Shown: positions 16,567 to 18,569 of the stretch, one piece after another
How the letters are laid out: each line of letters starts with the position of its first letter
Position numbering within the stretch: position 1 is the stretch's first letter
Made by a program: the position numbers and the translations under genes
From: Escherichia coli
GTDB lineage: Bacteria; Pseudomonadota; Gammaproteobacteria; Enterobacterales; Enterobacteriaceae
Assembly (NCBI RefSeq): GCF_013122565.1
Contig: NZ_CP053258.1
DNA: 64,000 nt
Reading direction: 5' to 3' (one strand)
Notes under the pieces: model-generated
What the model was told of the DNA's origin: nothing
Database searches by the model: none
What the model saw: only the letters and a program-made list of their open reading frames with translations

Positions 16567-17217
16567 ATGACCCGCACACTCAAGCCGTTAATTCTTAACA
16601 CCGGCGCACTGGCGCTAACGTTAATCCTGATTTATACCGGCATTTCGGCCCATGACAAACTCACCTGGCTGATGGAAGTGACACCGGTGATTATTGTCAT
16701 GCCGCTACTCCTTGCCACCGCGAAACGTTATCCGTTAACGCCGCTGCTTTATACGCTCATTTTCTTTCACGCCATCATCCTGATGGTCGGCGGACAATAC
16801 ACCTACGCGAAAGTCCCCGTTGGTTTTGAGGTGCAGGAATGGCTGGGGTTGAGCCGTAATCCGTATGACAAGCTGGGGCATTTTTTCCAGGGGCTGGTGC
16901 CTGCACTGGTGGCACGAGAGATCCTTGTGCGCGGGATGTACGTTCGCGGACGTAAAATGGTGGCGTTTCTGGTCTGTTGCGTGGCGCTGGCGATAAGCGC
17001 GATGTATGAATTAATCGAGTGGTGGGCGGCACTGGCGATGGGCCAGGGAGCGGATGATTTTCTCGGCACCCAGGGCGACCAGTGGGACACGCAATCCGAT
17101 ATGTTCTGCGCGCTGCTTGGCGCATTAACGACGGTGATATTCCTCGCTCGCTTTCATTGCCGCCAGCTACGGCGCTTTGGCTTAATCACCAGAGCGCCGG
17201 AAGCGATAACCCCTTAA
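16567..17217 (+). CDS. yjdF: Inner-membrane protein YjdF
   Basis: 216 aa hydrophobic ORF; its 3' end overlaps the melA stop by 4 bp (see findings). Confidence 0.75.
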   Translation: MTRTLKPLILNTGALALTLILIYTGISAHDKLTWLMEVTPVIIVMPLLLATAKRYPLTPLLYTLIFFHAIILMVGGQYTYAKVPVGFEVQEWLGLSRNPYDKLGHFFQGLVPALVAREILVRGMYVRGRKMVAFLVCCVALAISAMYELIEWWAALAMGQGADDFLGTQGDQWDTQSDMFCALLGALTTVIFLARFHCRQLRRFGLITRAPEAITP

Positions 17218-18569
17218 CGGTGCAACCAGCCTGGCAGCCAGTCGCCGTGGGCGGCAATCAGGTCGTCAACAAGAGCATATATTTCATCAATGCCCAGCAC
17301 GGCGGCAGTATGCGGGTCCATCATCGCAGCGTGGTAAACACGGTCGCGATTTTCGGTGAGAATGGCTTCAGTCAGCAGCGTCTGTACGTTGATGTTGGTT
17401 TGCATCAGGGCGGCCAGATGCGAAGGTAGCGTACCGACTTTGGTCGGCTGAATGCCATTAGCATCAACCAGACAGGCTACTTCCACACAACATCCTTGTG
17501 GCAGGTTATCAATCAAACCATCGTTACGGACGTTGCCGTAAATCACACTCGGCTCACCGGTCCAGATAGCGTTCATAATCGTGCTGGCATATTCCCGTGA
17601 CGGTTTAATATCAATCCGGGAGGCGTTTTTATACTCCTCCAGCTCTTTATGCCAGTTCGCCAGCTGCTCGACGCAGCGTTTCGGGTACTCATCCAGCGGT
17701 ACTTTATAACGCTCAATCAAATCCTCACGACCTGGCTTAATAAACCACGGTGTGTACTCAGCAAAATGTTCTGACGATTCCGTGACGAAATAGCCCAGCT
17801 TTTTGAACATTTCATAGCGCACAATATTCTGGCAGCGAGTATTGCCGTGAATATTCGGCTTCGGTGCCTGCCCTGCGTCATAAGCCGCCAGCAGTTCCGG
17901 GTAGAGATTCACGTAACTGCCGTCGGCGGTTTTGCGCTCCAGCTCCAGGTAAAACGCCATATGGTTGATACCTGCGCAACGGTAACGCAGCGTAGCCGGG
18001 TCGATATTGAGGTCACGCGCCAGCTCTTCCGCCGTTCCCTGCACCGAATGGCACAGCCCGACCTGTTTGATATGCGGATAGCGGGCATACATCGCCCAGG
18101 TATTCATCGCCATTGGGTTAACATAGTTGAGCATGGTGGCATCGGGGCAGACTTCCGTCATGTCCTCGCAAATTTGCCACAAATGCGGAATGGTACGTAG
18201 CGCGCGCATAATACCGCCCGGCCCCAACGTATCGGCAATGGTTTGTTCCAGACCATGCCGTTTACAGACCTCGAAATCAGTCACCGTGCAAGGTTCATAA
18301 CCGCCAATCTGAAATGCCACCACGACAAAATCGGCATCCTGTAAGGCTTCTTTCTGTTGGGTGTGGCAGGTGATTTTGCCGCTGGCCCCTGCTGAATCCA
18401 TCAGCTTACGCACCACAATATGCGACTCTTCCAGGCGGGTGGGATCAATGTCCATCAGGGCAATATGCGCCGTTTTCAGCGCCTCGCGATGGAACACATC
18501 ACCAAGAATATTTTTAACGAAAATCGTCGAACCAGCGCCGATAAATGTAATTTTGGGTGCAGACATCAT
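17214..18569 (-). CDS. melA: Alpha-galactosidase (melibiase), NAD/Mn-dependent GH4 family
   Basis: 451 aa; N-terminal GxGS Rossmann motif (FIGAGSTIF); divergent from melR. Confidence 0.9.
   Translation of the reverse strand: MMSAPKITFIGAGSTIFVKNILGDVFHREALKTAHIALMDIDPTRLEESHIVVRKLMDSAGASGKITCHTQQKEALQDADFVVVAFQIGGYEPCTVTDFEVCKRHGLEQTIADTLGPGGIMRALRTIPHLWQICEDMTEVCPDATMLNYVNPMAMNTWAMYARYPHIKQVGLCHSVQGTAEELARDLNIDPATLRYRCAGINHMAFYLELERKTADGSYVNLYPELLAAYDAGQAPKPNIHGNTRCQNIVRYEMFKKLGYFVTESSEHFAEYTPWFIKPGREDLIERYKVPLDEYPKRCVEQLANWHKELEEYKNASRIDIKPSREYASTIMNAIWTGEPSVIYGNVRNDGLIDNLPQGCCVEVACLVDANGIQPTKVGTLPSHLAALMQTNINVQTLLTEAILTENRDRVYHAAMMDPHTAAVLGIDEIYALVDDLIAAHGDWLPGWLHR

Follow-up and report, generated by a model that had tools for sequence, protein, structure and literature searches.

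A naturally occurring melB-less allele of the Escherichia coli mel locus with overlapping 3' ends of melA and yjdF

The DNA analyzed here is a 64-kb stretch of an Escherichia coli genome, which we refer to as the window. It contains the melibiose genes melR and melA, with adiA on one side and yjdF, fumB and dcuB on the other, and it lacks melB, the symporter gene expected downstream of melA. The features needed in the following are listed by position; the borders of yjdF, melA and melR were taken from the list of open reading frames (ORFs).

13380..14720: flanking gene dcuB
14798..16444: flanking gene fumB
16567..17217, plus strand: yjdF, DUF2238 inner-membrane protein of 216 aa
17191..17217, plus strand: derived tail of yjdF, codons 209-216 (RAPEAITP) plus stop, in place of the native Gly209 plus stop
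17194..17213: junction filler of 20 bp, GCGCCGGAAGCGATAACCCC, delimited by the blastn breakpoints against K-12
17214..18569, minus strand: melA, alpha-galactosidase of 451 aa, intact
18570..18851: divergent regulatory region between melR and melA, from an intergenic alignment of six genomes
18852..19760, plus strand: melR, AraC-family activator of 302 aa
19956..22226: flanking gene adiA

The gene order in the window is the K-12 order in reverse, minus melB. If the melR-melAB locus of K-12 (b4118-b4120) and the adjoining yjdF-fumB-dcuB are taken for comparison, dcuB, fumB, yjdF, melA, melR and adiA have the same order and orientation as in the window. MelR (302 aa) is 100% identical to its K-12 counterpart, MelA (451 aa) is 99% identical with three substitutions, and no difference is seen in the promoter-proximal regulatory region. 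According to the ORF list and the raw sequence, the stop codons of the convergent yjdF and melA lie within one TTAA, in which positions 17214-17216, read as reverse complement, are the melA stop and 17215-17217 are the yjdF stop, so that the ORFs overlap by 4 bp. A tblastn search of the window with K-12 MelB as query had no hit within the 64 kb, even with a cutoff as permissive as E<=10. The first-pass annotation had described melB as missing and the 3' ends of yjdF and melA as overlapping by 4 bp, and this is borne out by the ORF list, the tblastn search and the K-12 alignment; its statement that melA and melR are intact is likewise in agreement with the identical MelR and the full-length MelA. 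As the structural difference is seen by alignment and is not a statistical pattern, chance is not at issue.

Homology to K-12 stops at window position 17193 and restarts at 17214, giving two colinear blocks in blastn. The first block (13000-17193) reaches codon 209 of K-12 yjdF, and the second (17214-22480) opens at the final base of the melA stop. In the gap between the two blocks K-12 has 1,665 bp, consisting of the 102-bp melA-melB spacer, the 1,422-bp melB, a 138-bp spacer containing a REP element and the yjdF stop, where the window has the 20-bp filler. Residues 1-208 of the YjdF encoded in the window are colinear with the K-12 protein and match the NCBIfam family NF007369 (209 profile positions, E=1.7e-140). 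The C-terminus is altered, from ...GLITG in the 209-aa protein of K-12 to ...GLITRAPEAITP in the 216-aa protein of the window. Since the native yjdF stop is lost, translation reads through into a new tail of eight residues and ends at a stop provided by the palindromic TTAA in which the melA stop lies. The earlier impression of a longer yjdF with the junction in its last codons was therefore correct. About 1.65 kb were thus deleted, from the base after the melA stop through the yjdF stop. What remained of this stretch is the 20-bp scar, which joins the convergent melA and yjdF at their 3' ends and gives YjdF its eight-residue substitute tail.

Two readings of the filler can be derived from its letters. 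One stretch, GGGG...TTCCGGCGC, also occurs in the loop and 3' arm of the hairpin between melA and melB in K-12, the 9-mer TTCCGGCGC having a probability of about 0.01 of matching by chance according to our own rough estimate, and the filler may be a remnant of this intercistronic hairpin. It also shares the hexamer GATAAC with the stop region of K-12 yjdF, and the breakpoint may instead lie just past the K-12 yjdF stop, with a 13-nt indel between two GATAAC hexamers. Each reading needs a second small event, so that the notion of a single deletion may be too simple. A single microhomology-mediated deletion was considered and rejected: the K-12 breakpoints share at most GTTA, and a join at this motif destroys the melA stop and does not reproduce the filler.

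The direction of the change at the deep level can be read from other genera. The order melA-melB-yjdF-fumB-dcuB is found in Citrobacter gillenii, C. amalonaticus, C. portucalensis and C. braakii, Kluyvera has melA-melB-yjdF, and Salmonella keeps melA-melB, with yjdF not found there. From this outgroup synteny it follows that melB was ancestrally present, and the melB-less state in Escherichia is accordingly a deletion. The YjdF protein points the same way. In a comparison of its C-termini across genera, K-12, Citrobacter and Kluyvera have proteins of 205-210 aa, and the 216-aa tail is confined to the melB-less Escherichia loci (the window, E. whittamii, SCPM-O-B-8794 and E1V33). The tail is the same as in the window in E. 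whittamii and SCPM-O-B-8794, and reads RAPEATTP in E1V33. With 205-210 aa being the rule outside the deletion allele, the 216-aa form is derived and the polarity of the deletion is clear at this level. As a separate observation on this gene, variation among E. coli strains is unusually high in the 3' half of yjdF, reaching 35 differences in 310 sites.

To see how common the arrangement is in E. coli, we counted its occurrence in 5,426 complete genomes. A 221-bp query centred on the junction was matched in one piece in 1,264 of them (approximately 23%), and a 2.3-kb region was matched in one piece in 1,270. K-12 melB DNA was found in 4,136 genomes. Together the melB+ genomes and the genomes with the junction amount to 5,400, compared to 5,401 genomes with any match to the junction query. 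The two classes are thus complementary, which indicates that carrier genomes have no second melB; for the present strain, a melB copy or another alpha-galactoside permease outside the 64-kb window is made improbable only by analogy with these 1,264 carriers. The melA gene is present in 5,399 of the 5,426 genomes.

Annotated genomes in which melA adjoins yjdF include CFT073, 042, NT1F34, SCU-101 and MRY15-131. All five carry the same allele as the window, with the junction, the 4-bp overlap and the 651-bp yjdF; their filler differs by one to two substitutions from that of the window and the locus is 97.7-99.0% identical. CFT073 differs in that its yjdF is frameshifted. The strains K-12, HS, O157:H7, O145:H28, O111, O103 and IAI39 are melB+. 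CFT073 belongs to phylogroup B2 and 042 to phylogroup D, and among the melB+ strains K-12 and HS belong to A, O157:H7 and O145:H28 to E, O111 and O103 to B1 and IAI39 to F. With carriers in B2 and D and melB+ strains in A, E, B1 and F, the distribution is patchy and does not cleanly follow the deep phylogeny. The flanks are not sorted by allele class either: within E. coli the deletion allele and melB+ strains have nearly the same flanking sequences, and the melB-less NT1F34 and the melB+ O145 show two differences per adjacent 300 bp. Homologous recombination would carry the indel between backgrounds in this manner.

Native adjacency of melA and yjdF in this lineage had been named beforehand as the finding that could overturn the first-pass annotation, together with a melB located elsewhere or never present. 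The adjacency is indeed native. The other two parts do not hold, as carriers have no melB elsewhere and the outgroup synteny speaks against melB never having been present. The native adjacency lowers the interest of the observation and leaves its correctness unaffected.

The allele extends beyond E. coli in the strict sense. In a scan with MelA, covering one genome per species, melA was found to adjoin yjdF in E. whittamii, in SCPM-O-B-8794 (labelled E. coli) and in Escherichia sp. E1V33. The alignment to the window runs in a single block across the junction, with 91.9% identity for E. whittamii, 93.0% for SCPM-O-B-8794 and 93.3% for E1V33, and the filler has two to three substitutions compared to the window. 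A base-by-base alignment of ten melB-less Escherichia loci gave the same filler in all of them, with one to three substitutions. A junction that is colinear in lineages only 92-93% identical to the window indicates that the allele is old. In E. whittamii and SCPM-O-B-8794 the divergence from the window begins immediately on either side of the junction, which argues against recent import. E1V33 is a mosaic at this position, with an E. coli-like yjdF side and a melA resembling that of a cryptic clade, and its copy of the junction may be an import instead of a vertically inherited one. Taken together, we regard it as very probable that the window carries a natural and old melB-null allele of the Escherichia mel locus, which is neither private to this strain nor engineered.

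A further hint towards the history of the locus arises from the diversity of the melB segment itself. Between IAI39 and MOD1-EC7003, melB differs at 4 of 1,422 sites, whereas melA differs at 48 of 1,356 and yjdF at 37 of 630. Among the four melB+ genomes aligned, the 102-bp melA-melB spacer shows no difference. The tract of low diversity extends from about 5250 to 6820 on the K-12 locus (L001) and nearly coincides with the indel. If all complete genomes are regarded, less than 99% identity to K-12 occurs in 9 of 4,136 genomes for melB and in 2,473 of 5,399 for melA. In addition, the melB+ IAI39 and the melB-less MRY15-131 are almost identical in their fumB and melA 3' flanks.

These data could mean that the polarity is reversed within E. 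coli, with the melB-less state being the older one and the K-12-type melB having been re-acquired or recently re-spread by homologous recombination. The donor would have been an Escherichia lineage that kept melB, so that the arrangement in the window would be old and that of K-12 derived. We consider both the reversal and such a donor possible, though rather doubtful. In their favor are a deletion allele common to lineages that are 7-8% divergent, a melB segment that in melB+ genomes varies much less than the DNA on either side, a tract of low diversity corresponding approximately to the indel itself, the scarcity of melB divergence from K-12 relative to that of melA in the above counts, and the nearly identical flanks of IAI39 and MRY15-131 despite their opposite melB state. 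Against this, the detailed alignment covers only four melB+ sequences, and the same pattern results if one melB allele has swept through a melB+ class of long standing. E. coli MelB shares 84-87% of its amino acids with MelB of Citrobacter, Salmonella and Kluyvera, the same as these genera share among themselves. With such equal distances nothing points to a foreign donor, and melB must have persisted within Escherichia throughout; a foreign origin of E. coli melB is rejected on these grounds. Deeper in the phylogeny the absence of melB still represents a deletion, as the outgroup order and the YjdF length indicate.

Returning to the old deletion allele, its later fate could be that of an ancient polymorphism. 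Presence and absence of melB would then be an Escherichia-wide polymorphism that homologous recombination keeps in motion. The melB+ segment of today's E. coli would go back to a much younger common ancestor, owing to a recent sweep or re-introgression, and the deletion allele would predate the split of E. coli from lineages like E. whittamii. We offer both parts of this reading tentatively, as they are drawn from few sequences.

Citrobacter provides a parallel. Five genomes of this genus (C. youngae and Citrobacter spp. MGH106, Res13-Sevr-PEB04-36, Cu233 and wls619) have lost melB alone, and as in the window they keep melR and melA, with melA adjoining yjdF. In Res13-Sevr-PEB04-36, compared to C. 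gillenii, 1,522 bp comprising spacer and melB are replaced by 8 bp, and unlike in the window yjdF keeps its native stop and a REP-like hairpin is still there. The breakpoints in Citrobacter differ from those in Escherichia, and the loss must therefore have occurred independently and convergently at least once. The loss of melB alone in Citrobacter and the low diversity of the melB segment hint at a long-lived, recombining presence/absence polymorphism. If the polymorphism is indeed ancient, selection would act on the transporter itself, MelB being costly in some niches, and the alpha-galactosidase would have a role or an uptake route independent of MelB. A melB so much less variable than its surroundings, the diverse 3' half of yjdF and the loss in Citrobacter make the locus a compact natural example of such a polymorphism.

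The first-pass annotation had left it undecided whether the deletion was natural or engineered. The junction in 1,264 of 5,426 genomes and in other Escherichia favors the natural origin, and the scar-free junction in a non-K-12 backbone speaks against the engineered one. An engineered deletion would resemble the melA+ ΔmelB strains constructed in laboratories for transport studies, such as DW2. The look of the locus is gene-precise, with melA and melR untouched and the junction just outside the melA stop, and laboratory ΔmelB strains do exist (DW2, for example, is named in the acknowledgements of PMC4308713). Such an origin is nevertheless extremely improbable for a junction that recurs in 1,264 natural isolates and in other species. 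No match to FRT, FRT arms, loxP or the Datsenko-Wanner P1/P2 priming sites was found in the whole window with four mismatches allowed over full sites, so that the junction is without the scar of such constructions. The window is 1.1-1.3% divergent from K-12 (98.7-98.9% identity) and carries non-K-12 segments, with differences in phn, als and IS621, and its best match among complete E. coli genomes is about 99% identical. An assembly or collapse artefact that dropped melB has hardly any probability: nothing specific speaks for it beyond the general experience that repeat-flanked deletions can be assembly errors, and against it stand more than 1,200 independently finished genomes with the same arrangement, a junction marked by a filler specific to the lineage and by the conserved, derived tail of yjdF, and a site without flanking repeats. 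A Shigella origin of the window was rejected, as cadA is present.

The absence of melB is thus ordinary strain variation, neither engineered nor unique, and it also occurs in some sister species. The K-12 order is not the E. coli arrangement as such, and a missing melB should neither be flagged as an anomaly nor be taken as a sign of engineering. The allele itself can already be seen in public annotations, as more than 1,200 such genomes carry it. A full-text literature search found no published account of the melB-only allele or of its phylogroup distribution. What remains of mild interest is the evolutionary pattern and the implied use of MelA independent of MelB.

With regard to such a use, the parts for melibiose utilization are present in the window except for the symporter gene: MelR and its sites are there and MelA is intact. 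In the alignment of six genomes, the window does not differ from K-12 in the inverted repeats of the MelR sites (TTCCCATAAACTCAGAT ... ATCTGAGTTTATGGGAA) or in the approximately 180 bp proximal to the promoter. The dN/dS ratio of melA is 0.006-0.045 against all comparators, and 0.01-0.03 at a dS of 0.2-0.43 between melB-less lineages. Such ratios mean that purifying selection on melA is strong in lineages without melB, which indicates that the alpha-galactosidase is kept by selection without its cognate transporter. A melA constrained for so long predicts a MelB-independent route for alpha-galactosides, with LacY as the obvious candidate. LacY also transports melibiose (PMC4308713), and loss of MelB therefore need not give a melibiose-negative phenotype. 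The cell would still make a melibiose-inducible alpha-galactosidase in the absence of the Na+/melibiose symporter, and uptake of alpha-galactosides would have to rely on a different permease, most plausibly LacY. As the most likely working model, a MelR-controlled MelA would be fed by LacY or another permease. Such a cell is predicted to be melibiose-negative, or to use melibiose in a slow, LacY-dependent manner.

The overlap of the two genes might also have a transcriptional effect. A search for an intrinsic terminator between melA and yjdF gave only weak consensus matches inside coding sequence, no more than in shuffled sequences. With no terminator-like hairpin between the genes, induced transcription of melA would probably run antisense into yjdF.

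At least 80% of melB is present in 74.8% of the complete genomes, which is close to the textbook figure of 75% melibiose-positive E. coli (quoted in PMC11546641), the two samples not being comparable. The allele matters little for annotation and fits the textbook statement that about three quarters of E. coli ferment melibiose.

Other lesions of the mel genes are found in E. coli as well. In STEC/EPEC of serotype O80:H2, melR, melA and melB are all reported to be absent, a 70-bp insert ("70mel") is found and the strains are melibiose-negative (PMC11945584). This resembles the window in being a natural loss of mel genes at the same locus with a short filler; there, however, the whole operon is gone and 70 bp are inserted, whereas here melB alone is gone and the filler has 20 bp, and the events are independent. 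The melB gene is also naturally inactivated by insertion, with IS3 in melB of the O145 strain 95-3192 and IS5/ISEc35, IS1A and IS1B in melB of other E. coli. In these knock-outs melA is intact as in the window, but melB is still present in interrupted form.

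Among the melB-carrying genomes, the diversity of melB and of the melA-melB spacer is 5-10 times below that of the adjacent genes melA, yjdF and fumB, as seen when positions 5268-6932 of the K-12 mel locus (L001) are compared with the loci L003, L007 and L091. The low-diversity tract largely matches the indel at which yjdF and melA converge in the window. The 3' half of yjdF (window 16881-17190) shows unusually high diversity within E. coli. Here IAI39 differs from CFT073 and SCU-101 at up to 35 out of 310 sites, a divergence similar to that seen against E. whittamii, and 13 differences in the IAI39 yjdF are clustered in 44 bp adjoining the melB side.

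Decay of the mel locus was also observed in other E. coli. In 2012C-4502, the strain with the junction closest to that of the window, a Mu-like prophage truncates melA (L087 4115-8221). An IS3-family element splits melB in O145 95-3192 (L004 7425-10159), and yjdF of CFT073 contains a frameshift (L085 31811-32453).

Outside E. coli, melB-only deletions occur in the Citrobacter loci L014, L020, L027, L028 and L067 (approximately 7350-7480), where melR and melA are intact and a REP-like hairpin as well as the native yjdF stop are kept. These deletions are independent and their breakpoints differ. We further report melR-melA in the loci L041-L046 (Raoultella, Klebsiella oxytoca/spallanzanii and Enterobacter sp. 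10-1), with no MelB homologue within the approximately 5-6 kb of fetched DNA 3' of melA.

Further differences to K-12 were found downstream in the window. The phosphonate (phn) operon is mostly absent (34779-35590): the alignment to K-12 skips directly from yjdN to phnO, and both phnC-phnN (approximately 9.7 kb) and phnP are missing. End to end, this reduced arrangement occurs in only about nine of the 5,426 complete E. coli genomes in the collection. In addition, rpiB-alsRBACEK is replaced by a 9.4-kb segment, and a query including this segment was covered to at least 80% in 410 of the 5,426 genomes. The genes of both regions are:

34833..35267, phnO, the sole phn gene kept, with 93.8% identity to K-12 and no higher
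35590-44948, the 9.4-kb segment: hybrid histidine kinase, OmpR-type regulator, sugar ABC transporter, D-lyxose/D-mannose isomerase (NF051472), ketose-1,6-bisphosphate aldolase and PfkB kinase

The yjcO-gltP intergenic region contains a copy of IS621 (55347-56624), a bridge-RNA-guided recombinase of the IS110 family, which K-12 does not possess at this site. Its ORF (55539..56519) matches PDB 8wt6 (E=2e-217), and naRNA4/REP-type repeats lie on both sides of the element (55276-55346 and 56667-56737).

With the gathering score as the threshold, Rfam matches in the window included the following RNA elements, all of which are expected for the region:

28268-28433, minus strand, sRNA STnc630
34100-34276, plus strand, two tandem naRNA4 repeats in the yjdM-yjdN interval
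52753-52807, plus strand, SECIS element of fdhF
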